Shown here: one piece after another, positions 20,701 through 54,379 of the stretch
Position numbering within the stretch: the stretch's first letter is position 1
How the letters are laid out: the number at the start of each line of letters is the position of its first letter
Assembly: GCA_963695895.1 (NCBI GenBank)
Contig: CAVOIK010000022.1
Span: 6,485 to 70,484 of the forward strand
Reading direction: 5' to 3'
Origin: an uncultured delta proteobacterium
GTDB lineage: Bacteria > Desulfobacterota > BSN033 > UBA1163
DNA length: 64,000 nt
Translations under genes and position numbers: made by a program
The notes under the pieces: model-generated
Told to the model about the DNA's origin: nothing
The model's input: only the letters and a program-made list of their open reading frames with translations
The model's database searches: none

Positions 20701-23421
20701 GAACCGGAGTGTGGCTCATCGGGACGTGTGGATTGCCGGGAAAGAGGAATGGTGGTTCGAGGTTGGCGATCATGACCGGATCGATTTGCTCCCGGAGAGA
20801 AAGCGGTATGAGCCTGGAGAAAAGGCAACGTTTCAAGTCCGCATGCCCTTCCGGGAGGCGACCGCACTCGTCACCGTGGAGAGAGAAGGGGTGATGGAGG
20901 CGTGGGTACAAAAGCTCTCCGGAAAGAACCCGGTCCTCGAAGTTCCCATCAAGGGGAACTATGCACCGAACGTTTATGTGTCCGCTCTCGTGGTGAGAGG
21001 TCGCGTCGCAGGGGTTCAACCTACGGCGCTGGTGGACCTTGGAAAACCTGCTTACAAACTCGGCATCGCCGAGATCCAGGTGGGTTGGAAAGCTCATGAG
21101 CTGAAAGTGAGCGTTTCATCGGCTCGGAAGGTCTACAGAGTTCGTGAGAAGGCGAAGGTTAGGATCCGGGTGAGAACAGCGGATGGAAAAATTCCTCCGC
21201 CTGGGAGCGAGGTGGCTGTCGCTGCAGTGGATGAGGGTCTTCTTGAATTGATGCCCAACCGCAGTTGGGAACTGCTGTCTGCCATGATGGGACGAAGAGC
21301 CTATGACGTCCGTACCGCCACGGCGCAGATGCAAGTCATCGGCAAGCGTCACTTCGGGTTGAAGTCATTCCCCCAAGGAGGGGGAGGGGGAGACAGCCCA
21401 CCCGGGAAATGTTCGATACCCTTCTTTTGTGGAAAGCTCGCGTACCGTTGGATCTTGAAGGAGAGGCTTCGGTGGATATTCCCCTCAATGACTCCGTCAC
21501 GAGTTTCAAGGTCGTGGCAGTTGCCACTGGAGGGACGGGACTCTTTGGAACAGGGGCCACATCGATTCAGTCGACTCAGAACTTAATGATCCTTTCAGGG
21601 TTGCCCCCTCTCGTGAGGGAAGGGGATCAGTTCAAGGCAGGATTTACGCTTCGGAACACGACAGCGGGCAGCATGGACGTGGAGCTTTCAGCGAAGGTCG
21701 AGGGCCTCCGAAATCAACCCAACCCCATGGTCGTTTCTCTGGCGTCAGGAGAGGCCAAAGAGGTCGGATGGGATGTGATGGCTCCGATCGGTGTCAACAA
21801 GCTTCAATGGGAACTGGAAGCATCTGAGCGCGGTTCCCCTGAGAAGGATCGCATCAAGATCAACCAGAGGGTTACCCCGGTCGTACCGGTGAGTGTGTTT
21901 CAGGGAACGATCATTCAACTCGATAGAGATCTTACGGTTTCCGTGGATCGGCCCCAGGATGCCATTCCGGGCCGTGGGGGTGTAAGGGTCACCCTTCGCC
22001 CCAAACTCAGCCAGGGATTGAGTGGGGTTACCGACTATATGGTCGGATATCCTTACCTTTGTATGGAGCAGAAAATCTCTGTGGCCGTCGCTCTGCGGGA
22101 TGAGAACCGGTGGAAGAGGGTGATGTCTGAATTGCCGACTCATCTCGATGCCGATGGGTTGGTCAAGTATTTTGCCAGCATGACGTGGGGCAGTCCCACT
22201 CTCACCTCCTATATTCTTGCAATTGCTCACGAAGCGGGCTGGAGTATTCCTGAGGAAACGAAGGGGAAGATGGAGACGGCGCTGCGCAATTTTGTGGAAG
22301 GATCCATCGTCCGATATTCTCCCATCCCCACAGCCGATTTGTCGATCCGAAAATTGTCGGCTGTCGAAGCGCTTTCAAGATATCGAAAAGCTGAAGCGAA
22401 GCTGTTGAGTTCCATCTCCATCGAGCCCAATCTTTGGCCAACGTCGGCCGTCATCGATTGGTTGAACATTCTCCAAAATATGGGTGACCTTCCGAGCCGG
22501 ACGGATCGGATAAAAGAGGCCGAGCAGATCCTGCGATCGCGGCTCAATTTTCAAGGGACCACCTTGGGTTTTTCAACCGAGAAGACCGATGCCCTGTGGT
22601 GGTTGATGATCTCCAATGACGTCAATGCCGTCCGTGCCGTCCTGTCCCTTCTTCCTCTTGAACGGTGGAAAGAGGATCTGCCAAGGATCGTTCAGGGAGC
22701 GTTGGGCCGACAGAAGAACGGAAGGTGGGATCTGACGCTCGCCAATGCTTGGGGCATGATGGCCATGGAAAAATTTTCGAAGGTTTTCGAAGCCATCTCT
22801 GTCAGTGGATCCACCCGAGCCACTCTTTCAAGCCAGTCTCAGATCACGGACTGGAGCGCATCCCCACAGGGAAAGGACTCTCTATTCCCATGGCCGATGA
22901 AAAGGGAGGATCTTTCTCTCACCCATCAGGGAACTGGAAAACCCTGGGCCACCCTCCAGAGCCTTGCGGCGATTCCTCTCAAAGAGTCTCTATCGAGCGG
23001 GTACAAGATAAAAAGAACGGTCATTCCGATGGAACGGAAGGACAACAACGCGTGGAGCCGTGGCGATATCTTGCGAGTCCGGCTGGAGGTCGAAGCCCAG
23101 GCTGACCAAACCTGGGTGGTCGTGAGTGACCCGGTGCCTGCAGGAGCCACGATCCTCGGAAGTGGCCTCGGAAGGGACTCACAGCTCTTGTCCCAGGGAG
23201 AAGAGTGGAAAGGGATGGCGTGGTTGGCTTACGAGGAACGCTCTTTTGAGGCCTATCGGGCCTACTATGAATATGTCCCCAAAGGGAAATGGGTTTTGGA
23301 GTACACCCTGCGATTGAATCAAAGTGGAGTTTTCCAGCTTCCAACGACCAGAGTGGAGGCGCTTTATTTCCCGGAGATGTTCGGAGAGATTCCGAATCAA
23401 ACGATGAAGATACAACCCTGA
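17724..23421 (+). pseudogene. Bacterial alpha-2-macroglobulin family protein, two frame disruptions (about 19190 and about 21385)
   Basis: Three consecutive ORFs (17688-19250, 19241-21586, 21409-23421) read through as one roughly 1900-aa protein. It has a signal peptide and the thioester-type motif GYPYLCMEQ (CMEQ at 22060-22071). The indels fall at a CC(C) run and a GGGGG run. Confidence 0.85.
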
Positions 23422-23789: not shown

Positions 23790-25930
23790 ATGAGAGTTTG
23801 TATGAAGAGACGTTTGATCTGTGTCGTGGTTTTCACATTGGTTACAGGTGGGCTGGCACATGCCCTGCCGTCCTTTGATGAGGTCCGCACGTCTTTTGTA
23901 AAATCCGATTCTCTTTTACTCGATCGACATGGAGACGTCCTCCATGAATTGAGAGTGGATCAAGAAGCAAAGAAGGCTCGATTGGACACCTCTCAAGACG
24001 ATTTCCCCTGTTTTGCAGGAGGCGGTCATTCAGGCCGAGGACAGACGGTTCTATGATCACGAGGGTGTGGATTATCGTTCCATGGCAGCCGCCGTGATCC
24101 AAGGGTTAACGACCGAAAGCCTTCGAGGGGCGAGTACGATCTCCATGCAAGTGGTCTCTCTGTTGAATAAGAATCTCCAGGCCAAACAACAGAGGAAGTC
24201 CCTGTGGCAAAAGGGACAGCAAATTCTGGAGGCATTGGACATTGAAAAAGAATGGTCCAAAGAGGAAATTCTGGAAACCTATCTGAACCTCGTGACATTT
24301 CGCGGAGAACTTCAAGGAATTTCTGCGGCCTCAAGGGGGCTCTTTGGAAAGGATCCCCATGGTTTGGAGCAGGCAGAATCTCTCCTCCTCGCTTCGCTCA
24401 TTCGGGCCCCCAATGCCTCGATGAAGGACGTGGTGAAGAGAGCCTGTCATCTCGGTGAGACGCTGGGGTGGCAGGTGGATGCTCAAGAGGTCGAATTGGA
24501 AGCGCGGGAGGTCAGCCTGGGCCGCAACGATGTGCGACCGAGAATGGCCCTTGCTCCTCATGTGGCCCGGCAGTTATTGCGGTTGCATCCAGAGTCAACA
24601 GTCATCCCCTGCACCTTGGATGGACGAGTTCAACAATTTGTCCTTGATCGGTTGACGCATCACCTTTGTACGTTACAGTCGCAGAATGTGAAGGACGGGG
24701 CGGTTCTGGTCGTAGAAAACCGTACGGGAGAGGTTCTCGCCTATGTGAGCCATGCGGGAGAACCCTCCCACTCCCGCTTCGTCGATGGCGTTGTGGCCAG
24801 AAGACAGGCAGGTTCAGCCTTAAAGCCCTTTCTTTATGCCGTTGCTTTTGAGCGAAGAATTCTTGACGCCGGTCTCACTGTTGGATGACACGCCTCTGGA
24901 TCTTGCCGTGATCCGTGGGATCTATCAGCCTAAGAACTATGATTCCCAATTCAAAGGACTCGTCACTTCCAGGGTCGCTCTCGCTTCCTCTCTGAATGTT
25001 CCTGCCGTGAAAACCTTGTCGCTGGTAGGGATCGAACCTTTTCTGAGCAAACTGCGTCAGCTGGGGTTTGGAGGACTCAACGAGTCTGGTGATTTCTATG
25101 GTCCTTCCCTTGCACTCGGATCCGCGGATGTGAGCCTGTGGGAACTCGTGAATGCCTATCGAACGCTGGCCAATGAGGGTCTTTGGAGTGAGCTTCGTTT
25201 TACGCGAGAGAAAGACCTCACGACGTGCTCACGAAAAGTGTTCTCAAGGGAAGCGGTCTTTCTCATCTCTGATATTCTCTCTGATCGCGGAGCCAGGAGT
25301 CTTACCTTTGGTCTGGAGAATCCGTTGGCCACACGTTTTTGGACAGCGGTCAAGACAGGCACGAGCAAAGAGATGAGGGATAATTGGTGTATCGGATATT
25401 CAAACCGATACACGGTGGGTGTTTGGGTAGGAAATTTCACTGGGGAGGCCATGTGGAATGTCAGCGGTATTACCGGAGCAGCTCCCATTTGGGCTGAAGT
25501 GATGAACTTCCTCCATCAGAAGGAAGGAAGTGTGAAAAGTAGGCCGCCGGCGAGTTTGGTGAGGAGCAGAGTCCAATATTCCGGGGAGGGTGAGACGCGT
25601 GAAGAGGAGTGGTTTATCCGTGGGACGGAGCCCCATGTGAAACATCCAAGAACAGGCCAATTCAACCGTCGAATTGTTTATCCGCCATCCGGCGCCGTCA
25701 TTGCGTGGGATCCGGATATTCCACCTGAGCTTCAAAAAGTCTTCTTCGTTTCCCAGACCAGCGAAGGGAGTCTTCAATGGATTCTGAATGGGGAAACCAT
25801 GGACAGGGTTGGGAAAACGGTTTCCTGGACCCCGAAGGCTGGAAAATACGCTCTTGCCCTTGCAGACCCAGAAGGCAACATTTTAGATTGTGTCTATTTT
25901 GAAGTCCGAGGTCCTGAGCTTCACCCGTGA
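23790..25930 (+). pseudogene. pbpC: Penicillin-binding protein 1C, two frame disruptions (about 23980 and about 24865)
   Basis: Glycosyltransferase motif QAEDRRFYDHEGVD, transpeptidase SALKPF (SxxK), and the PBP1C-type C-terminal domain. It lies immediately downstream of the macroglobulin gene. Confidence 0.85.
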
Positions 25931-26779: not shown

Positions 26780-27754
26780 TCATTTCATCGTTTTGACCGG
26801 ATTATCCTTCTTCTTCTCGATCATCGCGCTGTTTTGGTCAAGCAATGTGTGAAGCCGTTCCTTTTCTTGAGCGGTCAGTTTATTGGCGGTCCTCAGACGA
26901 GCCTCCTCTCCTTTTACAAAGTCTAAATTCTCAAGCAGTATTTTAGATTCGTCTGATGTAAGCTTCTTCGATTTAGTAGCGTTGTCAATCCGTCGCTGCT
27001 GCTTAGCAAATCGTTCCGGGATCGTCATTTTCCGCTCAGTGAGCGCCCTGTGCTCTGCGAGATCCTTTACCGGGTTGTTCTTCTTATCTTTGATCATCTT
27101 GTCGTTATCCGCGAGCATCTCGAGGAGGTCAGCCTTGTCCTCTTTTGAGAGCGTCCCATCTGCGCGGAAGCCAGTCTCCTCCTCGCGGATTTTATCGAGA
27201 TTACTCTGAAGGGTCTTTGATTCGTTCAAGGTAAACTGTTTCGATTTGATCCCTTCATCGATCCTCTTTTGCTGGCTTGCGATCTTTTCTTTGATCTCAG
27301 GGTCTTGAGCCGCTGGAGTTGGGACCGCGGTTTTTGCTGGCGCCGGAGTGGCTGCAGGGGCCGCTGTAGTCGGGGTTGCGGGTGTTGCTGCAGCTGTAGC
27401 GGCAGTTGTTGGGACGGCTATTGCCGTTATAGGGTACTTCTTCTTGTCCTGAATCATCTTATTGTTCTGGTCGAGCAACTTGTTGAGCTGGGTCTTTTCC
27501 TCTGCTGTAATCTTTCCGTCTCCCTGGAGGCGCACTCCTTCCTGACGGATTTGGCTCAGATTGTCCTGAAGTATCTTTGCTTCCTCCTGAGTAAGTTGTT
27601 TTGACTTTACCCCTTCAGCAACCCTATTTGTCTGGTTTGTTAACCTCTGTTCGATGTCCTTGTCCACCAGAGTCTGGCTGAATGTTTGAGAACTACTTGC
27701 GCCCAAAAAAATCACTGCTACGAAAATCACCCACCACACATGTAACCTTCTCAT
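26780..27754 (-). CDS. Secreted protein with three ~75-aa internal repeats and an Ala/Thr/Pro linker
   Basis: Start at 27754 behind AAAGGAGAAAC, with signal peptide MRRLHVWWVIFVAVIFLGASS. The repeats resemble QQKRIDEGIKSKQFTLNESKTLQSNLDKIREEE...DKMIKDKKNNP. Function is unknown. Confidence 0.7.
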   Translation of the reverse strand: MRRLHVWWVIFVAVIFLGASSSQTFSQTLVDKDIEQRLTNQTNRVAEGVKSKQLTQEEAKILQDNLSQIRQEGVRLQGDGKITAEEKTQLNKLLDQNNKMIQDKKKYPITAIAVPTTAATAAATPATPTTAAPAATPAPAKTAVPTPAAQDPEIKEKIASQQKRIDEGIKSKQFTLNESKTLQSNLDKIREEETGFRADGTLSKEDKADLLEMLADNDKMIKDKKNNPVKDLAEHRALTERKMTIPERFAKQQRRIDNATKSKKLTSDESKILLENLDFVKGEEARLRTANKLTAQEKERLHTLLDQNSAMIEKKKDNPVKTMK

Positions 27755-27897
27755 ATCGTTTCTCCTTTCTGACCATTGTCTATTGCCGACACAAATTTTG
27801 GACTCCTGAATCTTAAACAATGTACCAATTTTAATAATACAATTGGAATCAAGAAAAGTAAATGGGATGGTTCCAGATGAGACCTTGATGTTACTGT

Positions 27898-28344
27898 TCA
27901 GGTTCCGAGTTTTTCTCCCACCGCCTTCCCATAGTCGTGGCAGGCTTTCATGCCTTCTCGTGTTTCAACGATATCTTCTTTCAGATTCATAGAGCCGAGG
28001 TCTGTCATGTTCATTTTGAACACATGCTCCATGGTGTCGTAGATCAGCTTGGGTGCGTCGCCACTGTGAGTATACGAGCCGAAGGTCCCTCCCACCTTCC
28101 CCTCCGGGTTAGCCTTTTTTGCCAGAAAAAGAAAGGTCTTCATGTTCTCTGTCATGTCGCGGTGATAGGTTGGAGAGCCAAAGACATAACCGTCGTATCC
28201 TAACAGATCTTTCTCATTCTTGATCTGGGTGATCCTCTTAGTCTCTGCCTCGTGGCCACTGATTCGAATCCCTTCTGCAATGTACTCTGCCATCTGTTGA
28301 GTCTTCCCCGTGAGGCTGACGTAAGCCACCAAGACCTTTTTCAT
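27898..28344 (-). CDS. Short-chain flavodoxin
   Basis: 148 aa, MKKVLVAYVSLTGKTQQMAE... (FMN phosphate loop S/T-x-T-G-x-T). Confidence 0.85.
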   Translation of the reverse strand: MKKVLVAYVSLTGKTQQMAEYIAEGIRISGHEAETKRITQIKNEKDLLGYDGYVFGSPTYHRDMTENMKTFLFLAKKANPEGKVGGTFGSYTHSGDAPKLIYDTMEHVFKMNMTDLGSMNLKEDIVETREGMKACHDYGKAVGEKLGT

Positions 28345-28459: not shown

Positions 28460-28695
28460 GTAACCCCTCAGTTACCGGTCACGCCATTGTCCCCGGAGGT
28501 CGACCTGCTCCGTCCTCGCGTTCCAGAGGCGGGGTTTTAAACGTGACCCTAACTAAGCTCTGGGCATTGATGGACGGTGATTTGCCAGGAGTCGCGGTGA
28601 GTCCTTCGCAAAAGGATCCGCCACCGGACCGCTGCGGGTGAGCAGGTCAACCTCCGTGGAATGGGGGGGCTGCTGTGCGGTAACTGAGGGGTTAC
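28460..28695 (+). mobile_element. 236-bp MITE, copy 1
   Basis: 18-bp perfect TIRs GTAACCCCTCAGTTACCG / CGGTAACTGAGGGGTTAC. The 8-bp duplication CGGAAGAA lies at 28452-28459 and 28696-28703. Confidence 0.85.
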
Positions 28696-28996: not shown

Positions 28997-31009
28997 ATGA
29001 AGGGTCCAGAAAAGCGGTCTAAAGTTCTCGTGATTGGCAGTGAAACAGAGTTCCTCCAGATGGCTGGGAAGTGCCTGGAAAATCAGTTCGACCTTCAATA
29101 CGCAACCGATCAGAACGAAGCGCTATCCAAAGCGAGAACAGAGCGGCCTGACGTCCTCATCCTAGGATACCTCGATCCTCGAGGCACTTCCTTTCGACTT
29201 CACAAGACACTCCGAGAAGGTTGGATCACAAAACATATTCCCCTCCTCGTGGTGGACGTGGAGTTACCCGGACGACCCGAAAAACGATGGACCAGTCAGG
29301 AAGCCATGGAGATGGATGCCGAAGACTACCTGTCGATTTCGGTGAACGATACCGCATCGATTCCCCAGGTCATGGCGTCCTTCGGTTTGACAGAGAGGAT
29401 CGATACCAAGTTAAGCGAGAAGGCCAATACCCTTCGAGAAGCGATACTCAACCCCCATATCTTCTGTGTCACCTGGGAACAGATCCCGGGCAGAGGCGCC
29501 TTCGAGTTGCAGCAGGAACTCGTGATCGAAAACGTGAGGAAGGCGGCCGAATTAGGCAGGATTCATGCGATCAGCGTGACAGACAACCCGGGAGGGAATC
29601 CGGCCATTTCGACGGAGATGCTCTGCATGGAGATTAAGAAATTGGGGACAGAGCCTCTCGTTCACCTGGCGTTACGAGACAAAAACAGAAGCGAGATCGA
29701 GAGCATGCTCTACGGCCTTGCCGCGGGTGGCGTGAGAAACATCTTAGTGTTGTCGGGCGATTACCCGTCGATGGAAGGATTTGAAGGAAGACCCAAGCCG
29801 GTGTTCGACATTGACCCAGTCAACGCCGTCCGTCTGATCGAAACGATGAATCGCGGTTTAGAACATATGGTCATGGGGAAAAAGGTGACGCTCGCCTCCA
29901 CAGATTTTTTTGCTGGCGTCTGCGTTTCTCCGTTCAAGCGAGAAGAATCTGAGTTGATAGCCCAGTACTACAAGCTCAAGAAGAAAATCGACGCAGGAGC
30001 GAAATTTATCATCACCCAAGTGGGTTACGATGCCAGAAAGTTTCACGAACTCATGCAATGGCTGCGCATCAATCATAATCCCATCCCCGCCCTCGCCAAT
30101 ATCTATATCTTGCCTTACGGAACAGCAAAGCTCATGAGTGCCAATAAGATCCCAGGGTGTGTAGTGACGAGCAAGCTCGTTGCTGAATTGGCAGAGGAAG
30201 CTAAGACCCAAGACAAAGGAAAATCGACTCGTCTCCTTCGAGCGGCAAAACTCTACGCGATCACCAAAGGGATGGGCTATGCCGGAGCCCATATCGGAGG
30301 GCACGGGATCACATCCGACATGGTGGAATTCATCATCACCAAGGGAGAAGAACTATCGAAGAACTGGCAGCCCCTCATTGCTGAATTCGATTATCCTCAG
30401 CCGGACGGTTTCTACCTCTTCGAGAAAGATCCCAAAACAGGCCTGAACACCGGTACCTTAGCCAAGCGACCCTTGAACCCGTCAAAACCCCTCATCTATC
30501 AGTTTTCGAGACTGGCCCATCGTTTGATCTTCAATGAGAAGAGCAGGAGATTTGAACTTCTCCAGAAGTTCGCTCAAAGGGTGGATGCCTTACCCAAAGC
30601 CAAACGAGTCCTGGGACATGTTGAACATCTCGTTAAGGCCGCCCTGTTCCACTGCATGGATTGTGGGGACTGTGCACTCTTTGATATTGCCTATGTCTGT
30701 CCCATGTCGCAGTGTCCGAAGAATCAGAGAAACGGAGCATGTGGGGGAAGCTACGAGGGGTGGTGTGAGGTCTATCCGAATGAGCAGAAGTGCATCTGGG
30801 TTCAGGCCTATGAGCGACTGAAGGCTTACAGCGAGGAGGCGAAGCTCGGGGAGACCATCATTCCTCCATGCAATTGGGATCTCTGGCAGACTTCCTCGTG
30901 GCTCAATTTCTACCTCGGCAGGGACCACACGGCCAAACGGCTCGGCGTGAAGCCGCCCCAACCGAAAAATCTACCAAAGGACCCTGGCGGAACAGAAAGC
31001 GAAAGATAA
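28997..31009 (+). CDS. Pseudo-receiver / methylene-THF reductase (MetF-like) / MetV-like Cys-rich domain fusion protein
   Basis: 670 aa. The N-terminal ~125 aa have the receiver fold pattern but lack the DD pair, the phospho-Asp (VLILGYLDP) and the Lys. The centre is ...ISVTDNPGGNP...LRDKNR...VLSGDYP (MTHFR-like). The C-terminus is CMDCGDCALFDIAYVCPMSQCPKNQRNGACGG (MTHFR C-terminal/MetV-like). Confidence 0.75.
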   Translation: MKGPEKRSKVLVIGSETEFLQMAGKCLENQFDLQYATDQNEALSKARTERPDVLILGYLDPRGTSFRLHKTLREGWITKHIPLLVVDVELPGRPEKRWTSQEAMEMDAEDYLSISVNDTASIPQVMASFGLTERIDTKLSEKANTLREAILNPHIFCVTWEQIPGRGAFELQQELVIENVRKAAELGRIHAISVTDNPGGNPAISTEMLCMEIKKLGTEPLVHLALRDKNRSEIESMLYGLAAGGVRNILVLSGDYPSMEGFEGRPKPVFDIDPVNAVRLIETMNRGLEHMVMGKKVTLASTDFFAGVCVSPFKREESELIAQYYKLKKKIDAGAKFIITQVGYDARKFHELMQWLRINHNPIPALANIYILPYGTAKLMSANKIPGCVVTSKLVAELAEEAKTQDKGKSTRLLRAAKLYAITKGMGYAGAHIGGHGITSDMVEFIITKGEELSKNWQPLIAEFDYPQPDGFYLFEKDPKTGLNTGTLAKRPLNPSKPLIYQFSRLAHRLIFNEKSRRFELLQKFAQRVDALPKAKRVLGHVEHLVKAALFHCMDCGDCALFDIAYVCPMSQCPKNQRNGACGGSYEGWCEVYPNEQKCIWVQAYERLKAYSEEAKLGETIIPPCNWDLWQTSSWLNFYLGRDHTAKRLGVKPPQPKNLPKDPGGTESER

Positions 31010-31140
31010 GCGATCCTCTTAGAAGAGATCCATCAGATCAAAAGGCAACCGAGTATACACTTATTAAACTGACGCCTCTGGGAGCCACCTTGTTCATTCC
31101 AAACTCTCCCTTGATCAGACTACGTCCGTGACCGGAGCGT

Positions 31141-31198
31141 GCCCCGCAAGCCCCGCTCTGTGCCTGCCTGCGGTAGGCAGGGGCGGGGAGCTTCACTT
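31141..31198. repeat. Nested REP unit: GCCCCGC...GGCGGGGAGCTTCAC interrupted by CCTGCCTGCGGTAGGCAGG
   Basis: The outer palindrome encloses a second palindrome type. The stop codon of the kinase gene 31193-32710 lies inside the AGCTTCAC tail. Confidence 0.7.
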
Positions 31199-32710
31199 CT
31201 CCGTTCCACAGGACTCGGGGCTCAATTCCTTCGGAAAAAGAAGGGTGAACGTCGTGCCTTTGCCCTCTTCGCTTTCAACAGAGATTTCCCCTAGGTGGGC
31301 GTCAACCATACTCTTGACAATGGAAAGCCCCAAGCCTGTTCCGATGATGTGGCGCGTTTCTTGGGATTTGACTCGATAGAATCTATCGAAGATCCGAGAA
31401 AGATTCTCTTTCTTTATCCCAATGCCTGTATCCGAAACGGTTGCCTTGACGTACCCGCTCTCCTCCCCTAAGGTGATCCAGACCTTCCCATGCTCGGGTG
31501 TATATTTGATCGCGTTGGAAATGAGATTGATGAAGATTTTCTCCACGTTGCCCCGGTCAGCACAGATGAGAGAAGGGATGACTGAGGGGGAGAACTGGAG
31601 GTCGATATTCTTTTTTTCTGCATCGGTTTTCATGAAATCGACGATTTTCCGGATGATCTCTTGGAGGGTGAGGGGTTCTTTGTACTGAGTCATCTTACCT
31701 GCTTCGATTTTGGATAGATCGAGGAGATCTTTGATCAAGGCGAGGAGTCCTTTAATTCTCTCCCTGGCCCGAGAGAGCATCTCTTCTTGCTTCTCAGTGA
31801 GTTCTCCCGCAGCCTTGCTGATGATGGCGGATATCTGCTGATCCACCGTGGCGATGGGTGACCGAAGTTCATGGGCCACCATGGCAATAAACTCTGATTT
31901 CATCCGATCGAGTTCCTTCAGGTGACTGATGTCTTGAAGCACGGTAACCGTTCCCATCATCTGTCCGAGATCATTCCCTACGGGTGCCGTGTGGACCCGA
32001 AGAGTGATTTCTTCGGCGGCTCCGACCGATAGTTCTCTAGAAATGGACGTGTAGGACTTTTCCCCCATGTTCAGAACTTCGGTGATGGTCGAAGACAATT
32101 CCGAAGGGAGGGGGGCATTGGAAAGCGTTTTTCCTAACAGGCGGTCTCCAGAGACTTGGAGCATGCGGCCGGCCGCCGGGTTGGTGAGCACGATGGAACC
32201 GTCCTGATCGCAGACCAGGACACCATCTCCCATGGCGTGGATGATCGTCTTGATCTTTGACTTTTCCGTCGAGATGTCCCTTAGCGATCTTTCTCGTTCC
32301 GTCCGCAGGAATTCGGTCTCCCTTTGGAAGGCCCGCCGCTCGAGTGCCCTTCCAACCACAAGACGAAGCTGATCGGGAGTGAAGGGTTTGGGAATGAAAT
32401 CATAGGCGCCCTTCTTCATCGCCTCCACGGCAGATTCCACAGTGGCATAGCCCGTGATGACGATAACAGGGAGATCAGGATCCAAGTTTCGAGTCTGCTC
32501 CAAAACATCCATGCCACTGACTCCGGGCATCATCAGATCCAGAAGGACTGCGTCGATCTTGACATGATGCGTTTGGATTTGACTCAGTCCCTTTTCCCCA
32601 TTCTCGGCAAGGAGGACGGACCATCCCATCTTAGAAAGAATGCGTGCACATCCTTCCCGCATTGTCTGCTCATCATCAATGACGAGAATGGTTACTTGAT
32701 CGTGTATCAC
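31193..32710 (-). CDS. Hybrid sensor: N-terminal receiver-PAS-HisKA-HATPase
   Basis: ILVIDDEQ...LLDLMMPGVSG, H-box VAHELRSPI, and DTGIGI...GTGLGLS. Confidence 0.9.
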   Translation of the reverse strand: MIHDQVTILVIDDEQTMREGCARILSKMGWSVLLAENGEKGLSQIQTHHVKIDAVLLDLMMPGVSGMDVLEQTRNLDPDLPVIVITGYATVESAVEAMKKGAYDFIPKPFTPDQLRLVVGRALERRAFQRETEFLRTERERSLRDISTEKSKIKTIIHAMGDGVLVCDQDGSIVLTNPAAGRMLQVSGDRLLGKTLSNAPLPSELSSTITEVLNMGEKSYTSISRELSVGAAEEITLRVHTAPVGNDLGQMMGTVTVLQDISHLKELDRMKSEFIAMVAHELRSPIATVDQQISAIISKAAGELTEKQEEMLSRARERIKGLLALIKDLLDLSKIEAGKMTQYKEPLTLQEIIRKIVDFMKTDAEKKNIDLQFSPSVIPSLICADRGNVEKIFINLISNAIKYTPEHGKVWITLGEESGYVKATVSDTGIGIKKENLSRIFDRFYRVKSQETRHIIGTGLGLSIVKSMVDAHLGEISVESEEGKGTTFTLLFPKELSPESCGTEK

Positions 32711-32795: not shown

Positions 32796-33179
32796 CTATT
32801 TTGAGAGAAGCCCCTCGATCCGTTTCACCAATACTTCGGGCTCCACGGGTTTATCGAGGTAATCGTCCGCTTCTGTCTCAAGCCCCATCTCTTGGGTGTA
32901 CCGGGTCGTTGGAACGTGCGATGCCACGGCAGTCAAAAGGAGAACCGGAATGTGACTCATTTGAGGATTCGACTTCAATTCCCTGCAGACGGCATAGCCG
33001 TCCTTTTCCGGCATCATGACATCAAGCACAATGAGATCCGGCTTCTCGCTCGTCGCTTTCTTCAAACCTTCTATCCCGTTGTAGGCCGTCACCACGTCGA
33101 ACTTCTTCGGCTTGAGAATCAGGCTCACTGCCTCCACAAAATCTGGATCGTCATCGACCAATAGAATCTTTTTCGCCAT
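32796..33179 (-). CDS. CheY-like single-domain response regulator
   Basis: ILLVDDDPD...LIVLDVMMPEKDG...LTA...LDKPV. Confidence 0.9.
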   Translation of the reverse strand: MAKKILLVDDDPDFVEAVSLILKPKKFDVVTAYNGIEGLKKATSEKPDLIVLDVMMPEKDGYAVCRELKSNPQMSHIPVLLLTAVASHVPTTRYTQEMGLETEADDYLDKPVEPEVLVKRIEGLLSK

Positions 33180-33270: not shown

Positions 33271-35254
33271 TCACTGAATGGAAGTCGCCTGTCCTCCGTC
33301 AAGACCTGTTTCGTTTTCCGCACTGACAGGAAGTTCAATGGTAAACGTCGATCCCTTCTCCCACCTTGCTCTTCACGCCAATCTTTCCGCCATGACTTTC
33401 GACGATACCATAAGAGGTGGCGAGGCCCAATCCTGTTCCCTTGCCCACGTCTTTGGTGGTGAAGAAGGGTTCGAAGATACGGGAGAGATTCTCCTCAGGA
33501 ATTCCCTCCCCCGTGTCTGTAAACTCCACGAAAACAGAGGTTTCGGTCGGGTGAAGAAAAGGTGGTGATGGTGAGGTCCCCAGTTCCATGCATGGCCTCG
33601 GCGGCATTGATGATGATATTCGTAAAGACCTGTTTCAACTGACCCGCATGTCCAGTGACCCAGGGGAGCGAGGGATCGAGTCTCTTCGTGATTCGGATGT
33701 TGTGAAAGAGCGCTTGATTCTCAAGGAAGAAAAGGCCGTCGGTGATGGCCCGATTGATATCCACAGGTTCCCTCTTGGGTTCGGTCTGTCGAGCAAATTC
33801 GAGAAGGCTCTTCACGATCTCCTTGCACCGACCCGTCTTCCTGAACAATCCGTTCGAGATCCTGTCTCTTGGGATCCTCTTTTGGAAGATCTTCCATCAA
33901 GAGACTCGAGTAGATCAGAATGCCACCCAGCGGGTTATTGATCTCGTGGGCAATGCCGGCGGCGAGTTTTCCAAGAGAAGCCATCTTCTCCGAGCTCACC
34001 AGTTGAAGATGAGTCTCTTCGAGTTTTTTTTCCATCTGTAGACGAGGCCGCAAATCCGTGAAAATACCGACGGTAGCAACCTCCTTGTACGACCTGTCAT
34101 AGATGAGAGCCGCTGAGAGCTGGATGGGAACTTGCTCTCCCGCCTTGTTGAGAACGGTCAACTGGAGAGGCGTCAGTTTTCCCACCCCGCCGTGGTCTGG
34201 ACTTCGAAGGTTTTCCATGATCTCTTTGGCCATGCCTTTGGGATAAAGCTCCGTGATGTGAAGCTTTCCAATCACCTCGCTTGCCGAATACCCCGTGAGA
34301 TCTTCGGCCCCCTTGTTGAAGATGAAAATGTTTCCTTTCATATCCGTCGCTATGATTCCGTCCACCGAACTTTCGATCAAATTCCTGAAGAATTCATTCG
34401 TCTCGCGACGCTCTTCCTCGATCCGTTTCCGTTCCGTAATATCCAAATTAATTCCCTGGTAGCCGACAATGTCTCCTTTCTCATCTGCGGATGGGGTAAC
34501 CTGTCAATAAGCACCGTCATCTTTTCCCATCTTTCTTTTTGAATTCCACCTCCATGTCCTTAACATACCCATCCCGTTCGATTTTTTCCTGAAAGGTCTT
34601 TCGATCCTCAGGGTTGGCATAGAGATTTTCTGTGAGGTCCATGTTAAGACATTCCTCTTTACTGGAGTAATCGAGCATCTCAAGCAACGCCTGGTTGCAG
34701 TCCAGGAACTTGCCTTCTTTCGAACTGATAAAGAGGCCATGTCTCACCCGTTCGAAAAGATTCCGAAGCCTCTCCTCAGAGTCCTTAAGGTCTCTTTCGT
34801 ATTTCTTTCGGACCGTGATATCGCGGACATAGGCATAGATCTTCACGCCACCCTTCTCCGATTTTGCCGAAGCGATGCAAATGTCGGTCTCTTTAAGTTG
34901 ACCTTGGGGGGTCAGGATATTCATCTCTACGCAAAGCTTCTTTCCCGGCCCCTCTCCTCGGATGACGGTCCCTTCGAGAAATTCCCTGTCTTTTTTTCCG
35001 ATAACAGAGAAGAAATTTTTTCCGATAAGGTCTGATTTAGGAATTCCTGTAATGTCAGAGGCCATCTGATTGGCAAACAAGATGTTAAATTGTTCATCGA
35101 AGACAAAGATCCCATCCTCCCCCATCTCGGCAATCTTGTCAAAACGATATCCGATCTCCTGGTTTTCCGGTTCTTTGTTTCTAGCCCAAGGGCGAGAAGA
35201 TGTCTTTTTTTGCCTTTCCTTCACGGAAACGCCCTCACAGGCCTGCGTGGTCAA
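33271..35254 (-). pseudogene. Multi-PAS sensor histidine kinase, at least four frameshifts plus an in-frame TGA
   Basis: ORF pieces 34517-35254, 33721-34446, 33495-33848 and 33335-33607 chain into PAS-PAS-PAS-HisKA ([10 protein letters not shown])-HATPase (DTGEGIP...GTGLGLA). ...[17 protein letters not shown]... near 34505 is a nonsense codon, not an indel. Confidence 0.8.
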
Positions 35255-36101
35255 AAACTACTGGAATCTGACTCTCCCACCCGATGGGGATCAGATGGAC
35301 TCCCTGGCAGAAAGGCCGGATAGCCTTGACGATCTCTGCTGCAATCTCGACACTTGTTCTCTGTTTATCAGAGGCTTTCATCAAACGGTCAATGATGGCT
35401 TCGGGAATGGAGGCTCCCTCCACATGTTTGCTGATATACCGAGCCATGCCCACCGACTTGAGTAAGGTGATGCTTGCGATGATGGGCACCTTGAAAGGGC
35501 TCACCTTTCCGGCGAAGGCCTCAAACAGAGCGGGATCAAAGATGGAGTTTGTGAAAAAGAAATCCACACCCAAGCGAACCTTTTTCTCCACATCGTCAAG
35601 GTCGAGCCCCTGTCCCAAGGTTCCAACATGGGTCTGAGTCCCGAGGGTGAACGTGGGTTTTCCGCTCAACTCATGGCCCGCAAGATCCCATCCCTCTCGA
35701 AGCCGTTTGGCTGCTTCCAGGAGACCCAAGAGGTCCAAATCTGAGACAGACTTCGCTTCGTAGTGATCCCCGAGAGAAGGATCGTCTCCCTGAAGGACAA
35801 AAATATTTTCAAGGCCCAGAGCAGAAGCGTTGAGGAGATCGGATTGAAGAGCTAAACGATTACGGTGACGACAGGCGAGGTTGAAGATCGGTTCGATGCC
35901 TTTTCCTTTAAGCAGCGTGCAGACAGAAAGAGAGCCCAGTCTCATGATGGCATTCTGCAGATCTGGAACACTGACCGCATCCACGCGATGTCGGAGGTGC
36001 TCGGCGTGTTCCATAAGCTCGGAGACCTGGTTGCCCTTCGGTGGCTGGAGTTCAGCGATGACGATGAACTTTCCAGAGGCCAACTTTTCTTTGAGTGACA
36101 T
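35235..36101 (-). CDS. metF: Methylenetetrahydrofolate reductase, small acetogen-type paralog 1
   Basis: Start MSLKEKLASGKFIVIAELQPPKG behind GAGGAGAA. It has MTHFR-like TIM-barrel motifs and follows metV. Confidence 0.8.
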   Translation of the reverse strand: MSLKEKLASGKFIVIAELQPPKGNQVSELMEHAEHLRHRVDAVSVPDLQNAIMRLGSLSVCTLLKGKGIEPIFNLACRHRNRLALQSDLLNASALGLENIFVLQGDDPSLGDHYEAKSVSDLDLLGLLEAAKRLREGWDLAGHELSGKPTFTLGTQTHVGTLGQGLDLDDVEKKVRLGVDFFFTNSIFDPALFEAFAGKVSPFKVPIIASITLLKSVGMARYISKHVEGASIPEAIIDRLMKASDKQRTSVEIAAEIVKAIRPFCQGVHLIPIGWESQIPVVFDHAGL

Positions 36102-36325
36102 AAGGGTTCTCCTCTGAGGTGGCGACTCCGTGTTCCAATTTATCCGCCTGCGGGTTCTGAAAGCTAAGCCGTAGCGCTCGTCTGCCCATAGCCCCACGCC
36201 GAGTGGAACAATAACCTTGTTTGTGTTTGAGAGGGAAATCAGATCAGAACATCACGTTCAAGCCGTGATGACAGTTATGGAACGATTGAACCTTCCTCCG
36301 ATTCTGTCAACCTCAGAGGAGACGT

Positions 36326-37000
36326 TCACTGAGCATATCGTTTCTTATAGGGCTCTTGGATGAGAGATCCCCGCTTTGTGTTTTTCCATTCTCGCGGAGG
36401 CCGCACCTTCAGGATCAGGTCCAACCGATCCTGTTTTTTTAAACGATCATAGATGTCGAACCATGCACAGGGGGTGTCTTTGCTGACTTCACACTTCCCA
36501 TCGACAGACGTCCCGCCGCAGGGCCCGTTGAAAATGGATTTCGCACACCTCGTCACTGGACAGATCCCTCCTGTGTCCCCCAGGACACATTCTCCACAGG
36601 AACGACAGTTCTCCTCGTACCATCCGAGGTCTCGATCCACTCCCACGAACACCGTATTGAGAGCTGGGAAAACGACTTTTTCAGGATATCGATCCGCCAG
36701 AAATTGAACGCCTGCCCCGCAGGCCATCGAGAGGACAGCGTCGTAGGACTTAACTTTTTCATCTAATTCAGAATAGAAATCAGGGTTGCATTGGCGCTCA
36801 ATCGTGTACCCGTCCATGTGAAGCGAACCTTGATCGGCCTTACACAGTTCCTGCAATTCCTCGTTGAGCAGGCCGACCTCTTTTTGACCTCCGGCAAGAC
36901 AAATCGATGTGCACCCGCCACATCCCACGTTCAGCACTCGTTTGCGTCCTTTGATCATCTCCTTAATCTCTTCCAGAGGTTTCTTCTCTGCGACAATCAT
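36326..37000 (-). CDS. metV: MetV-type zinc/FeS Cys-rich subunit associated with MetF
   Basis: VLNVGCGGCTSICLAGG...CRSCGECVLGDTGGICPVTRCAKSIFNGPCGG.... Confidence 0.75.
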   Translation of the reverse strand: MIVAEKKPLEEIKEMIKGRKRVLNVGCGGCTSICLAGGQKEVGLLNEELQELCKADQGSLHMDGYTIERQCNPDFYSELDEKVKSYDAVLSMACGAGVQFLADRYPEKVVFPALNTVFVGVDRDLGWYEENCRSCGECVLGDTGGICPVTRCAKSIFNGPCGGTSVDGKCEVSKDTPCAWFDIYDRLKKQDRLDLILKVRPPREWKNTKRGSLIQEPYKKRYAQ

Positions 37001-37024
37001 TCTCTTCCTCCACTGCTAAAGTCG

Positions 37025-37426
37025 CTATCTCTTAACGTGGCATTCTCCGCAAAAAAAAGGACCTGTCTTCTTCCCTTCTTTCTTGTTCATTCTGTGGCAA
37101 TCAAGACACTGTCTATGAAACGCCGTCTGGAGATCCAGACGTGCCTTCGGTCCGTGGCATTCCTGACAACGAATTCCCGACTTTCCCTCTTCAAGCTCGG
37201 CCTCGTCAAGAACATTCTTCCCCTGATCGTACCGATGGTGACATTCCTTACAGGAGAGCCCTCCTTCCATGTGACGGTTGTGAGGAAAGGAGACAGGGGT
37301 CCGTTCTCGCTTCGGAAAGGAGGGGCTATTCAGCATCATCGTGTCTGGCTGGGCCCAGAGAGCCTGTCCAAAAAAGAGAAAGAAGACGGTCGCCGTGAGC
37401 GAGATGAGACGTTTCTTCTTTTTCAC
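37025..37426 (-). CDS. Tetrahaem cytochrome c3-family protein, secreted
   Basis: Four CxxCH motifs (CKECH, CQECH, CLDCH, CGECH). The signal peptide VKKKKRLISLTATVFFLFFGQALWA assumes a GTG start at 37426. The alternative ATG at 37486 would translate through a REP unit. Confidence 0.75.
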   Translation of the reverse strand: MKKKKRLISLTATVFFLFFGQALWAQPDTMMLNSPSFPKRERTPVSFPHNRHMEGGLSCKECHHRYDQGKNVLDEAELEEGKSGIRCQECHGPKARLDLQTAFHRQCLDCHRMNKKEGKKTGPFFCGECHVKR

Positions 37427-37533
37427 GGGCAAGTCGGCTGGAAGTCCTGCCCTGTAGGCAGGGAGGAAAGCCGACCCTATAATCATATCTTCATTTCCCG
37501 GAAGCCCCGCCCTGTGGGCGGAGAGCTTCATTC
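37427..37533. repeat. Two REP-like units inside the operon
   Basis: GTCGGCT..CCTGCCCTGTAGGCAGGG..AGCCGAC (nested hairpin) and GCCCCGCCCTGTGGGCGGAGAGCTTCA. Confidence 0.7.
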
Positions 37534-37562
37534 TTGTTCCATTCTTTATGATGGTCATCGCA

Positions 37563-38003
37563 TCATAACCAGCTTTCGACAGGAGAGCCATCCATATCAG
37601 GATACACCTCCTGGGATCGGCAGATGCTCCGGCCGAAAGCGATGATACTCGGAATATCAACGCCAATCGGACAATAACAACGGCGGCAGAGAACACAGTT
37701 TCTCCAGACGAGGCTCTTGATCTTTTCCAAGAATGCCCGGTCCACGGCTCCTCGCTTTTTGTAAAGCTTTCCGACAGAGTGAATAGCTTTATAAGAAGGC
37801 ATGTACTGAGGGTCCTTGTGATGGGACATATAAAGGAAACAACTCTCAGCACAGAGGCTGCAGTGGACGCAGTGGGAGAGGAGTCGTTTCATTTTTCCCT
37901 TTTTCCGTTTCAGCATCTGTTGGATCTCGTCCCGGTTCACAGGGGTTGGGGTCTTCTCAGACATCCTTCTTTCCTCTCTTCCATCCGCTGGGACAGCTAC
38001 CAC
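37563..38003 (-). CDS. Small 2x[4Fe-4S]-type protein (HdrC / DsrK N-terminal-like), no CCG domain
   Basis: CVHCSLCAESC and CVLCRRCYCP cluster motifs. The ORF start overlaps the stop of the cytochrome b gene. An alternative start is MSEK at 37964. Confidence 0.65.
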   Translation of the reverse strand: MVAVPADGREERRMSEKTPTPVNRDEIQQMLKRKKGKMKRLLSHCVHCSLCAESCFLYMSHHKDPQYMPSYKAIHSVGKLYKKRGAVDRAFLEKIKSLVWRNCVLCRRCYCPIGVDIPSIIAFGRSICRSQEVYPDMDGSPVESWL

Positions 38004-38662
38004 GTTCTCGTCCCGCGTGCGAAACTGTATTCACTTCCAATCATAAAACGATAAAGAAAGAAAAAGATCATATGGCCCAGCCTGGTAAAGGGAATAGTGA
38101 TCAACATGATCTCCCCGGACAGAATATGCAGGAAGATCATCGTCCGATAGTCAAACCACTGATGGGTGGCAAAGAAACCGGTGATGAAAGGGGCCAGGAC
38201 GATGAGCAAAACGAGATAGTCATAGGAAGTGGAAATACTCCGGACCAGGCGAAGAAAAATACGTCGACACAGAAAGAAGAGGCCGCCGAGCAGAACCAGA
38301 AGCGTAAAGACATCCGATGTTGACTCGTCAAAACTCCAGAGCTGAATTCCCCAGGCTGCTTCGAGAAGGATTTGATGGGCCAAAAGGAAAATGGGGACGA
38401 TGAAAATCAGAATGTGAAAAGTGCAGGTGACCACGATGACGACAGGATGGGTGCCAAAAATCGTCCTCTTCAACAACTTGATCCAGGTACGAACTCGGGA
38501 TCCTAACCCCTGCGAAGGACTCTGTTTCTTGAGTTCTAAGTTCAGGAGGACCCATTCTTTTTCCCGGGTGAGGCTGAAAAACCGATAGATCTGAAATAGG
38601 ACACCCAGGATGAAGATGACAAATGACATCAGGATCAGGGGGCCCTCAATGAATCCAACCAT
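37997..38662 (-). CDS. Integral membrane NarI/DsrM-like cytochrome b
   Basis: 221 aa with about five hydrophobic helices and conserved His residues (FHILIF, LAHQIL, FLHILSGE). The layout is typical of the nitrate-reductase gamma-like family. Confidence 0.6.
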   Translation of the reverse strand: MVGFIEGPLILMSFVIFILGVLFQIYRFFSLTREKEWVLLNLELKKQSPSQGLGSRVRTWIKLLKRTIFGTHPVVIVVTCTFHILIFIVPIFLLAHQILLEAAWGIQLWSFDESTSDVFTLLVLLGGLFFLCRRIFLRLVRSISTSYDYLVLLIVLAPFITGFFATHQWFDYRTMIFLHILSGEIMLITIPFTRLGHMIFFFLYRFMIGSEYSFARGTRTW

Positions 38663-38946
38663 GAAGATCTCCTCGGATCGAATCTAACTTCTTGTGCTAG
38701 TGCACCGTATCAGAAATAACATGCATAAGACCCAATAAAGGGGCGGGTGGAGATATCGGAAGAGCCTTACGGCGGCAACCTTTCACTGCATGCATACTAC
38801 TCTCGAAGGGTACGCAATCCCTACTGTTTCCAGCCACCCACATAGTTGCCCTGACCTTTCCGATATGACCGCATACGTAAGGCGATGAAGATATTTCTAC
38901 CCGCCCTGCCAGCAGGGCTTTTTTAATCTATTTCTGAAACACAACA

Positions 38947-39864
38947 CTAGACTTGAGGTCTAGGAATCAATTTGGCTCGTTCAGCAATTTCTGGAACCCG
39001 GTGTTCCCACTCAATCGCCATGAGATGGATGCCACGAACGCCTTTGATCTCCCTCAACTCTTGGATTTGTTCCACGCAGAGCTGAATTCCCTCGTCTGCC
39101 GGTTTTTTCGCTTTGACCATGCGATCAATGATCTCATCAGGGATGATAATTCCCGAGACGTTCTTCGCCATGTACCGAGCCATACCTCCGGATTTGAGCG
39201 GAGTGATTCCAGCCAAGATATAGACCTTTTCGGTGAGGCCCAACTCATCGGCCTGTTTCATCCACTCTCGAAATCTCTTCATGTCGTAGATACACTGCGT
39301 TTGGATAAAGTCAACACCCGCACTGATCTTCTTGGCAAGCCGATGGACCCGCCATTCGAAAGGCTCTGCAAAGGGGTTCGCAGCGGCTCCGATGAAGATC
39401 TTGGGGGGTTCGTCAATGGGCTCCCCATTGATGAATTTCCCTTCATCGCACATCTTCTTGACGGTGCTGATCAACTGGATGGAGTCAATGTCGTAGACCC
39501 CCTTGCTCATCGGGTGATCCCCAAACTGTTGGTGATCCCCTGAGAGACAGAGCATGTTGCGGATGCCGTGGGTATAGGCCCCCAGAATGTCACTTTGCAT
39601 GGCCAACCGGTTCCGGTCGCGGCAGACCATCTGGAAATTCGGTTCCAAACCCTCCTGAATGGCAAGGAGACAGGCCGCCCAACTTGCCATTCGAACGACA
39701 CCGGTCTGGTTGTCCGTGATGTTCACCGCATCGACGATTCCTCTGAGATGACCGGCTTTCTTGCGAACGACTTCTGCATTGGCTCCGCGAGGAGGACCGA
39801 GCTCGCCCGTAAAAGCAAAATGCCCAGAGGTTAAGATCTTCTCAAGCCGACTTCCGGATTTCAT
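38947..39864 (-). CDS. metF: Methylenetetrahydrofolate reductase, small acetogen-type paralog 2
   Basis: 305 aa, ...FTGELGPPRG...VNITDNQTG...CRDRNR...LCLSGDH.... Confidence 0.85.
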   Translation of the reverse strand: MKSGSRLEKILTSGHFAFTGELGPPRGANAEVVRKKAGHLRGIVDAVNITDNQTGVVRMASWAACLLAIQEGLEPNFQMVCRDRNRLAMQSDILGAYTHGIRNMLCLSGDHQQFGDHPMSKGVYDIDSIQLISTVKKMCDEGKFINGEPIDEPPKIFIGAAANPFAEPFEWRVHRLAKKISAGVDFIQTQCIYDMKRFREWMKQADELGLTEKVYILAGITPLKSGGMARYMAKNVSGIIIPDEIIDRMVKAKKPADEGIQLCVEQIQELREIKGVRGIHLMAIEWEHRVPEIAERAKLIPRPQV

Positions 39865-40947: not shown

Positions 40948-42295
40948 TCATGCTCCCATCTTAAGATACGCCGTTAGGTGAGCTGCCTCTCGCGGGCCGA
41001 TCTTCACTTCCCAATCTTTCCCCAATTCTTCTTCGAGATCTCCGCTGACCGCAGCCACTGATCCGGGAATGACCACACGGCGGTGTTTGACCTTCTCCGT
41101 AATCCCACTTTTCTTAATGAAGCCTCCGATCGCATCGCCCACAAACTTCCCGGCAGCCCAAGCGGTGAGAACGGAGAGCCCTTCGGTGTCCATCACGAGA
41201 AGCCAACTAGGGACTCGGCTCGCTTCAACTTCCGCAGACACGATGAAGTAGGTGAGAGAAAAATTGGTGGTGATCAGGACCGGAGAGTCCTCGCCAGGAT
41301 TGCCGATCGGGTAAATGCCCTGTTGCATCATCATGGGTCTCTGGGGGTCCGTATAGATGTTGAGTCGCTCGACGAGAAGCGGGAATAGACTCTCGCCATG
41401 AAGATTGGAGAGCACAATAATCCCGGCATACTTTGCTATGAAAGTCGCTGCAATCAAGGCTTCCTTCATGGCGGTCGGTGGTCATCTCACAGGGGAACGT
41501 GATGGTAGGGAAACCGAGGGAGCGATTTTTTTGGTTCAGTGCAGCTCGGCGGATGAAGATCTGATCTTCAAAAGCCTTTCGCACTGTTCGCGAACCAGAG
41601 TCCAGAACAAGATCCTTGAGGCCTGCTCCCGTCAGCTTGTCGGAGAGTTGGGACAGAGCCTCAAAGTTATCGGCCTTCACCACCAGAGGACACTTGTTCT
41701 CTTTGGCAAGGTTGACCAGCGCTTCGCTATTGCCATTCGTCGCTGCGTAAATCAAGGGAACTCGGTCTGCACACACCTTCACGCCTGCGGCCAAAGACTC
41801 TGCGTTTTGGCTCATGAGGATGAGGGCTGCGTCGGTCTCGGATTTCACTTTGTTGATGAGCGAAACGAATTTTTGCGAATCTCCAGACTCGTTTTTGACC
41901 GCAATCATCTCAGGTCGTAAGGTGAGCCCCACTCTCTCGTACTTGAACTCTTTGAATTTTTTGAGACGAGAATTGACCTCGGCTTCGGGAAGGGTATCGC
42001 TCATGAGGACTGCAATCCCGGGTTTGTTCACAAAGGTTTTTTCGTGACGAAAGAGTACGGTCTCTCCGCCAATCCTCACCACGTTTTCTCCTGACCCAAT
42101 GGTTAGAGGTCGGATGGGTGGCGCAGAGGCTTCCGAGAGCATGGCCTTTGCTTCTTCGGAGACATAGGGGCAAGCCGAAAGCTCTGCTTTCCCCGCAGCT
42201 AAGTTCATGGCAAAGGCCAGGCAAGTGGGGACACCGCACTCCTTGCAGTTCGTTTTCGGTAACAGCTTGAAGATCTGGATTCCCGTGAGTGCCAT
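40948..42295 (-). pseudogene. acsC: Corrinoid iron-sulfur protein large subunit, one frame disruption near 41470
   Basis: N-terminal FeS motif CKECGVPTCLAFAMNLAAGKAELSACP. ORFs 41225-42295 and 40948-41469 join at ...TITFPCEMTTD|MKEALIAATFIAKYAG.... Confidence 0.85.
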
Positions 42296-54143: not shown

Positions 54144-54379
54144 GTAACCCCTCAGTTACCGGTCACGCCATTACCCCCGGAAGTCGACCTGCTCCGTCCT
54201 CGCGTTCCAGAGGCGGGGTTTTAAACGTGACCCTAACTAAGCTCTGAGCATTGATGCACGGTGATTTGCCAGGAGTCGCGGTGAGTCCTTCGCAAAAGGA
54301 TCCGCCACCGGACCGCTGCGGGTGAGCAGGTCAACCTCCGTGGAATGGGGGGTCTGTTGTGCGGTAACTGAGGGGTTAC
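54144..54379 (+). mobile_element. 236-bp MITE, copy 2
   Basis: It has the same TIRs as copy 1. The 8-bp duplication AAAATTTC lies at 54136-54143 and 54380-54387. Confidence 0.85.

Follow-up and report, generated by a model that had tools for sequence, protein, structure and literature searches.

An aspartate-less receiver domain fused to a MetF-MetV-type methylenetetrahydrofolate reductase in uncultured bacteria and its possible link to two-component signalling

Introduction

Of all steps of the Wood-Ljungdahl pathway, the one catalysed by methylenetetrahydrofolate reductase (MTHFR) is understood least; debate continues over which electron donor it uses and what part it plays in energy conservation. 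The DNA analysed here, a stretch of 64,000 nucleotides referred to below as the window, stems from a metagenome-assembled genome (MAG) that is 74% complete. It carries a gene in which a reductase of the MetF-MetV type seems to be joined to a receiver domain of two-component systems, which raises the question of what a receiver does on an enzyme of the methyl branch. A preliminary description had taken the domain for a receiver that has lost its phosphorylation site and had proposed that it ties the reductase to the signalling genes next door.

Results

Gene layout

The gene starts with ATG and encodes a protein of 670 residues that can be divided into four parts (Table 1); the model of the full-length protein reaches a pLDDT of 77 and a pTM of 0.79. 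In Pfam, the MTHFR family (PF02219) matches residues 158-407 with 70.5 bits (cut-off 24), and the MetV-type family (PF12225) matches residues 536-627 with 99.6 bits (cut-off 23). Both matches are far above their cut-offs, and the order read earlier from the translation, an MTHFR-like barrel followed by a Cys-rich MetV-like module, stands. The same holds for the three MTHFR-domain genes that had been counted in the window, which lie at 28997-31009, 35235-36197 and 38947-39864. An open reading frame of equal length (670 aa, 21409-23421) was considered as a paralog and rejected, as it is a piece of an alpha-2-macroglobulin gene.

Table 1. Parts of the fusion gene and genes adjoining it on its downstream side (positions within the window)
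Feature	Position	Strand	Basis or remark
Pseudo-receiver - MetF - linker - MetV fusion gene, 670 aa	28997..31009	+	ORF, Pfam, homologs
Residues 1-140, aspartate-less receiver (pseudo-receiver) and short helix	28997..29416	+	profiles, AlphaFold2, Foldseek
Residues ~145-410, MetF-type MTHFR TIM barrel	29429..30226	+	Pfam, alignments, Foldseek
Residues ~411-535, helical linker domain, family-specific	30227..30601	+	alignment, model, relatives
Residues 536-627, MetV-type Cys-rich module (PF12225)	30602..30877	+	Pfam, Cys pattern
Convergent hybrid kinase REC-PAS-HisKA-HATPase, 505 aa	31193..32710	-	most loci have an ortholog next to the fusion
Canonical single-domain receiver, 127 aa; DD, D, T and K present	32796..33179	-	alignment
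PAS-PAS-HisKA-HATPase kinase, three frame changes	33353..35254	-	intact orthologs
Small MTHFR paralog	35235..36197	-	probable true start near 36101, ~289 aa

The N-terminal domain

The Pfam model Response_reg covers residues 10-113 of the fusion below its threshold, with 13.2 bits for the whole protein and 18.3 bits for the domain alone (cut-off 30.2); the NCBIfam receiver models PhoB and PleD match the same stretch at about 2e-6. A profile built from 31 of these N-terminal domains matched 105 PDB chains at E <= 1, with PhoP as the best (2e-10), and nearly all of the 60 chains listed among these matches are receivers of response regulators. The AlphaFold2 model of residues 1-140 adopts a (beta-alpha)5 arrangement (pLDDT 81.6, pTM 0.78). 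When this model was compared with the PDB by Foldseek, the best 50 matches were all receivers at a probability of 1.00, with TM scores by target mostly between 0.63 and 0.78 for single-domain chains. Three independent lines, namely profile, AlphaFold2 and Foldseek, bear out the receiver-like nature of the N-terminal ~125 residues, and the profile and fold searches agree on it over residues 1-125.

The alignment of the profile to PDB receivers places G14/S15 at the position of the acidic DD pair and G57, within the motif LGYL[D/E]P, at that of the phospho-acceptor Asp; D87 occupies the Thr/Ser position and I114/S115 the K-P position, and there is no Lys ahead of helix 5. With G14, S15, G57, D87 and I114 at the key positions, all five active-site residues are thus replaced. 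Across 33 full-length homologs, G57 never varies, and conservation is at least 90% at each of G14, S15 and D87. The loss of every phosphorylation-critical residue, which had been noticed from the translation (GS for the acidic pair, no Asp at the acceptor position, no Lys), is confirmed by these positions, with Gly at the acceptor. Receiver fold and homology are present and the phospho-acceptor Asp is absent, which makes the domain a pseudo-receiver; as judged from alignment and model, it is a receiver fold predicted to be unable to be phosphorylated. A further mark is an insertion of 5 residues between beta4 and alpha4 that bears a K/R-x-W-T motif. The residues that fused and stand-alone members have most strongly in common sit in two loops, beta3-alpha3 and beta4-alpha4, that surround what was once the active site.

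Origin of the pseudo-receiver

Among the 37 receivers of the genome, the 5-residue beta4-alpha4 insertion occurs only in the pseudo-receiver and in the neighbouring receiver of 127 aa, and the insertion motif, in the form [R/K]-x-[Y/W]-[T/S], is common to both and to all their orthologs. In a quick maximum-likelihood search over 129 columns, with only the receivers of this genome as outgroup, the two groups form one clade with an SH-aLRT of 97.6, and the receiver of the hybrid kinase falls outside it. The stem branch of the pseudo-receivers is long (2.44). By these sequence relations, the dead receiver and the intact single-domain receiver beside it are paralogs, the latter apparently the closest that the former has.

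The reductase part

Five residues of the MetF barrel, E161, T195, H223, D255 and Q341, are invariant in the fusion family; we take them to be the counterparts of Glu28, Thr59, His88, Asp120 and Gln183 of Escherichia coli MetF. The catalytic positions align with those of solved MTHFRs and of the pathway MetF in the window, and Foldseek matches the barrel to the MTHFRs of Thermus and E. coli with TM scores by target of up to 0.82. Contrary to a loss of flavin- and folate-binding residues, the Glu, Thr-Asp, Gly-Asp and Thr-Gln positions are all kept. The PF12225 module has nine invariant Cys between residues 553 and 625, and its Cys motif aligns to the separate MetV of the window at 6e-14; model confidence is low over residues 554-596. 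The linker of ~125 residues, which contains an invariant GAHIGG motif, is also found in receiver-less fusions and has no match in stand-alone MetV. The MTHFR paralogs of ~290 aa nearby carry Pro-Asp in place of Thr-Asp and Asn, Ser, Thr or Pro in place of Gln (in the copy at 35235-36197, Pro-Asp and Thr-Asn stand at the Thr-Asp and Thr-Gln positions); because these small paralogs deviate at catalytic positions, the fusion is the orthodox copy. From these residues we infer that the product of the fusion is a methylene-tetrahydrofolate reductase of the MetF-MetV type, catalytically competent and made of a single chain.

Distribution of fused and split forms

When species-representative genomes were scanned with the N-terminal alignment, the same receiver type came to light at 62 loci, all in MAGs. 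The carriers belong to Thermodesulfobacteriota ('Deltaproteobacteria'), Syntrophorhabdus, Chloroflexota (Dehalococcoidia), Spirochaetes and Calditrichales, with single bins of Clostridia and Bacillota. At 46 of these loci the dead receiver is fused to MetF-MetV, and at the remainder it is a separate gene that usually adjoins metV/metF. Among proteins of 368-1173 aa, 77 were found to carry the module, and each of them is an MTHFR. The 120 best metagenome relatives cover 79-100% of the query (most 96-100%) at 61-92% identity, and their source annotations read only 'MTHFR (C-terminal domain-containing) protein', naming neither a receiver nor a role; the architecture is common but unannotated. Within the phylum, 66 of 301 genomes have relatives of the fusion, only eight of them with the N-terminal domain; the others encode MetF-MetV fusions of ~510-560 aa that lack the receiver, and both forms occur together in three genomes.

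An exhaustive profile search returned only 16 representatives at E <= 1e-30, among them stand-alone proteins of 130-200 aa with LGY[L/M]EPRG and RKGW motifs, and no representative of ~670 aa; long forms are probably clustered under receiver-less representatives, so that this search is unable to count them. The stand-alone Asp-less receivers score 29.9-37.2 bits, which is at the Pfam Response_reg threshold. One such gene lies directly upstream of a MetF-MetV gene of 540 aa and another upstream of a long-form fusion; elsewhere, a tandem of a receiver and a dead receiver precedes an HdrA/MvhD/MetV/MetF operon, and in Chloroflexota many tandem receiver forms follow metV-metF. Split and fused forms make up a Rosetta-stone pattern for the dead receiver and MetF-MetV.

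At L044:7878-9490, a stand-alone Asp-less receiver of the family sits directly upstream of a phosphotransacetylase gene, not an MTHFR, and adjoins a pair of a REC-GerE regulator and a PAS kinase; the family may have partners beyond MetFV. Two adjacent proteins of ~540 aa at L039:364-3667 combine Response_reg with a glycine-cleavage H-protein domain (GCV_H), their genes lying just upstream of the receiver/dead-receiver tandem and the Hdr/MvhD/MetVF operon. Protein P0299 (601 aa, on a 2.3-kb contig) has the N-terminal module and is recorded with MTHFR and HATPase_c domains; a real fusion to a kinase domain and a chimeric gene call are both conceivable.

Neighbouring genes

The genes that had been named beside the fusion, a convergent receiver-PAS kinase, a CheY-like regulator and a multi-PAS kinase, are borne out by their domain content. 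In loci of this type, the phosphorelay consists of kinases and a single-domain receiver, and a DNA-binding output domain is absent. All long-form loci examined carry orthologs of the REC-PAS kinase, with outer flanks that differ, and where the contig reaches they also have the PAS kinase, a REC of ~128 aa and an MTHFR of ~290 aa; of the 46 fused loci, which come from different species, about 28 have this small MTHFR type next to the fusion. Within 7 kb, 37 of the 46 have a canonical receiver, a histidine kinase or both; the other nine have neither within that distance in the reference set used, three of them being short contigs. The orthologous kinase/receiver set is found at none of 11 loci of receiver-less fusions, with another kinase or receiver nearby in two or three. 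As the relatives are not independent, the synteny is given as counts, with no statistical test. At L015 and L016, the MTHFR, REC and fusion genes are spaced by 22 and 7 bp. In some loci, the adjacent two-component pair includes a DNA-binding REC-GerE regulator, so that ordinary transcriptional control could account for the adjacency there.

The multi-PAS kinase of the window had been described as decayed, a view that is not upheld: the gene is colinear with intact orthologs at 66-84% identity, interrupted by three frame changes (near 34492, 33835 and 33542). Contigs of related sediment populations have single-base indels there (at 33539, 33836 and 34484-34521), and the breaks are therefore specific to strain or assembly; by this comparison, there is no ancient decay of the kinase. 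None of the break sites is at a long homopolymer, so sequence context alone is no proof of assembly error. Genes for alpha-2-macroglobulin (19241-23421), PBP1C (24013-25930) and the large subunit of CFeSP (acsC, 40948-42295) are likewise each split over two frames. With many breaks in one window, a core pathway gene among them, assembly indels are plausible. Contigs of one sediment metatranscriptome library match the fusion gene in four stretches, with identities of about 90-96%; they were set aside as evidence of expression because they come from relatives and may reflect DNA carry-over.

The closest relatives have a small MTHFR upstream of the fusion, of which no remnant was found upstream of the fusion in the window. 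That side is occupied by an open reading frame of 346 aa with no Pfam match (26780-27820, minus strand) and a flavodoxin gene (27898-28344, minus strand). Farther downstream, a block on the minus strand (36326-39864) encodes a MetF (305 aa), a NarI-like membrane protein, an FeS/cytochrome c3 protein, a MetV (224 aa) and a small MTHFR; the block, which adjoins acs genes and recurs in L013, L014, L017, L019, L023 and others, points to a MetFV linked to the membrane.

Two repeated elements flank the fusion. A hairpin element of ~236 nt with terminal inverted repeats (28460-28695 and 54144-54379; dG -127 kcal/mol, z -6.5) has one copy in the spacer upstream of the gene; at least seven copies with 74-97% identity occur in the MAG, and the element looks MITE-like and belongs to no Rfam family. 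A weak match to a miRNA precursor was rejected, as it reflects merely the long hairpin. Neither a riboswitch nor any other Rfam family was found in the window, including the 652-bp spacer that precedes the fusion. On its other side, where the fusion and the kinase converge, the spacer (31001-31194) contains a REP-like repeat of ~55 bp (core about 31143-31200) that has more than 50 matches across the MAG; about 194 bp are absent here in related populations.

Discussion

Proposed mechanism and alternatives

The architecture suggests a direct link from two-component signalling to a carbon-fixation enzyme, one that has stayed unstudied because all carriers found are uncultured. The N-terminal domain is a receiver that lacks the residues for phosphorylation; it would have been derived by duplication of the co-located single-domain response regulator and would serve as the contact point between the reductase and a phosphorelay of two PAS kinases and one canonical single-domain receiver. 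The simplest reading for a set of kinases and a single-domain receiver without DNA-binding output is that it acts on the reductase itself, by way of the dead paralogous receiver. Multi-phylum synteny and the paralogy with the neighbouring regulator speak for the tie to the signalling set that the preliminary description had proposed; that the protein is an active reductase whose pseudo-receiver connects MetFV to the co-encoded phosphorelay is, in our estimate, an evenly balanced proposition. Activity of the enzyme is an inference, as are binding of any kind, the direction of regulation and its effect.

Two routes can be envisaged. On the favoured one, the phosphorylated canonical receiver would pair with its dead paralog on the enzyme; alternatively, the dead receiver would dock on the kinase. 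By either route, the acetyl-CoA pathway would have its methyl branch adjusted post-translationally. Spelled out in full, with the phosphorylated receiver binding the dead paralog on MetFV and switching the reductase post-translationally in its activity, direction or electron-donor coupling, the favoured route is a tentative proposal and somewhat unlikely to hold as a whole. Complex prediction for the pseudo-receiver and the neighbouring receiver gave a score of 0.00, obtained without controls, which speaks neither for nor against binding.

A structural or oligomerisation role, in which the domain is a constitutive dimerisation or stabilising module and the two-component genes are transcriptional or unrelated, is unlikely. 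It would fit the loss of every phosphorylation residue and the DNA-binding REC-GerE regulator next door in some loci; according to a review of pseudo-receivers, many of them are constitutive dimers that function phosphorylation-free with no signalling partner, and the MetVF of Clostridium ljungdahlii is a dimer of heterodimers, in line with the (MetVF)2 assembly of acetogens. Such a role, however, leaves unexplained why two kinases and a canonical paralog that shares the rare insertion and has no output accompany the fusion across phyla, and why fusions of ~520 aa manage without the domain.

The direction of signalling might also be reversed, with MetFV sensing folate or the redox state through bound folate, reduced flavin or FeS and with a pseudo-receiver that mimics the regulator at the kinase, so that phosphotransfer to the true receiver is modulated and the target of the latter lies elsewhere. 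The pseudo-receiver is derived from the presumed substrate of the kinase and still resembles it in helix 1, where E-P-x-F follows the DD/GS position, and the single-domain receiver needs an output, of which none is encoded in the locus; yet the full set of catalytic residues and the MetV Cys motif fit a working enzyme better than a pure sensor, and kinase binding by the pseudo-receiver is only supposed, which makes this reading quite improbable. Small-molecule binding is reported for the pseudo-receivers of KaiA and CikA, and a kinase-independent allosteric domain whose remodelled and strongly conserved top-face loops (LGYLEPRG and K/R-x-W-T) bind a small molecule such as a metabolite or quinone would agree with the strongest conservation lying in the two loops at the former active site, but no tool points to any ligand and the conserved kinase and receiver neighbourhood stays unexplained, so that the chances of this alternative are slim.

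If the reductase is indeed the output of the phosphorelay, this MTHFR would be the first from a prokaryote to be signalled allosterically and would introduce a new two-component output logic, in which a receiver pairs with a pseudo-receiver on an enzyme and the phosphorelay acts on a central carbon-fixation enzyme. An enzyme form that is conserved across several phyla and is accompanied by kinases and a paralogous receiver of its own offers a testable handle on the flux and direction of the methyl branch, and the fusion adds an enzyme-linked member of the Gly type to the poorly understood pseudo-receivers.

Relation to known systems

No published description was found in the literature on PF12225, on fused MetFV or on MTHFR together with two-component systems, and the architecture is absent from two pseudo-receiver reviews and from the 2026 MTHFR review. 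The type II MetVF reductases of C. ljungdahlii, C. formicoaceticum and Thermoanaerobacter kivui (PMC8760232, PMC8515935) resemble the fusion in combining a MetF flavin barrel with a Cys-rich MetV with predicted FeS clusters, in having no NAD(P)H-binding subunit alongside and in their Wood-Ljungdahl setting. These acetogen enzymes consist of separate MetF and MetV subunits, whereas the fusion is one polypeptide with a linker of ~125 residues and an N-terminal pseudo-receiver; reduced ferredoxin as donor is a criterion for the former.

FrzS, RitR, ChxR and KaiA/CikA share with the fusion a receiver fold that has no acceptor Asp and derives from a canonical receiver (PMC4395418; bioRxiv 10.1101/2025.06.23.661182). 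The fusion differs from them in its output, a central-metabolic oxidoreductase that is listed in neither pseudo-receiver review, in its specific beta4-alpha4 insertion and in the co-occurrence of a canonical paralog and kinases; Gly at the acceptor site places it in a class without a characterised member in the 2015 survey (PMC4395418). A barrel fused to a non-catalytic, plausibly regulatory domain is also known from eukaryotic MTHFR, which has a SAM-binding regulatory domain; this domain occurs only in eukaryotes, and prokaryotic MTHFRs are not so regulated (PMC13001107, a 2026 review). The eukaryotic regulatory domain is C-terminal, however, and its fold is unrelated to the N-terminal receiver of the fusion.

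In CheB, PleD and RpfG, an N-terminal receiver is likewise fused to an enzyme and encoded near kinases; these receivers are phosphorylated, whereas that of the fusion presumably cannot be. The pairing of a canonical regulator with an atypical, phosphorylation-deficient one is known from the BldM-WhiI heterodimer of Streptomyces. Both BldM and WhiI are DNA-binding regulators and no enzyme takes part, whereas the pseudo-receiver described here sits on the enzyme itself.
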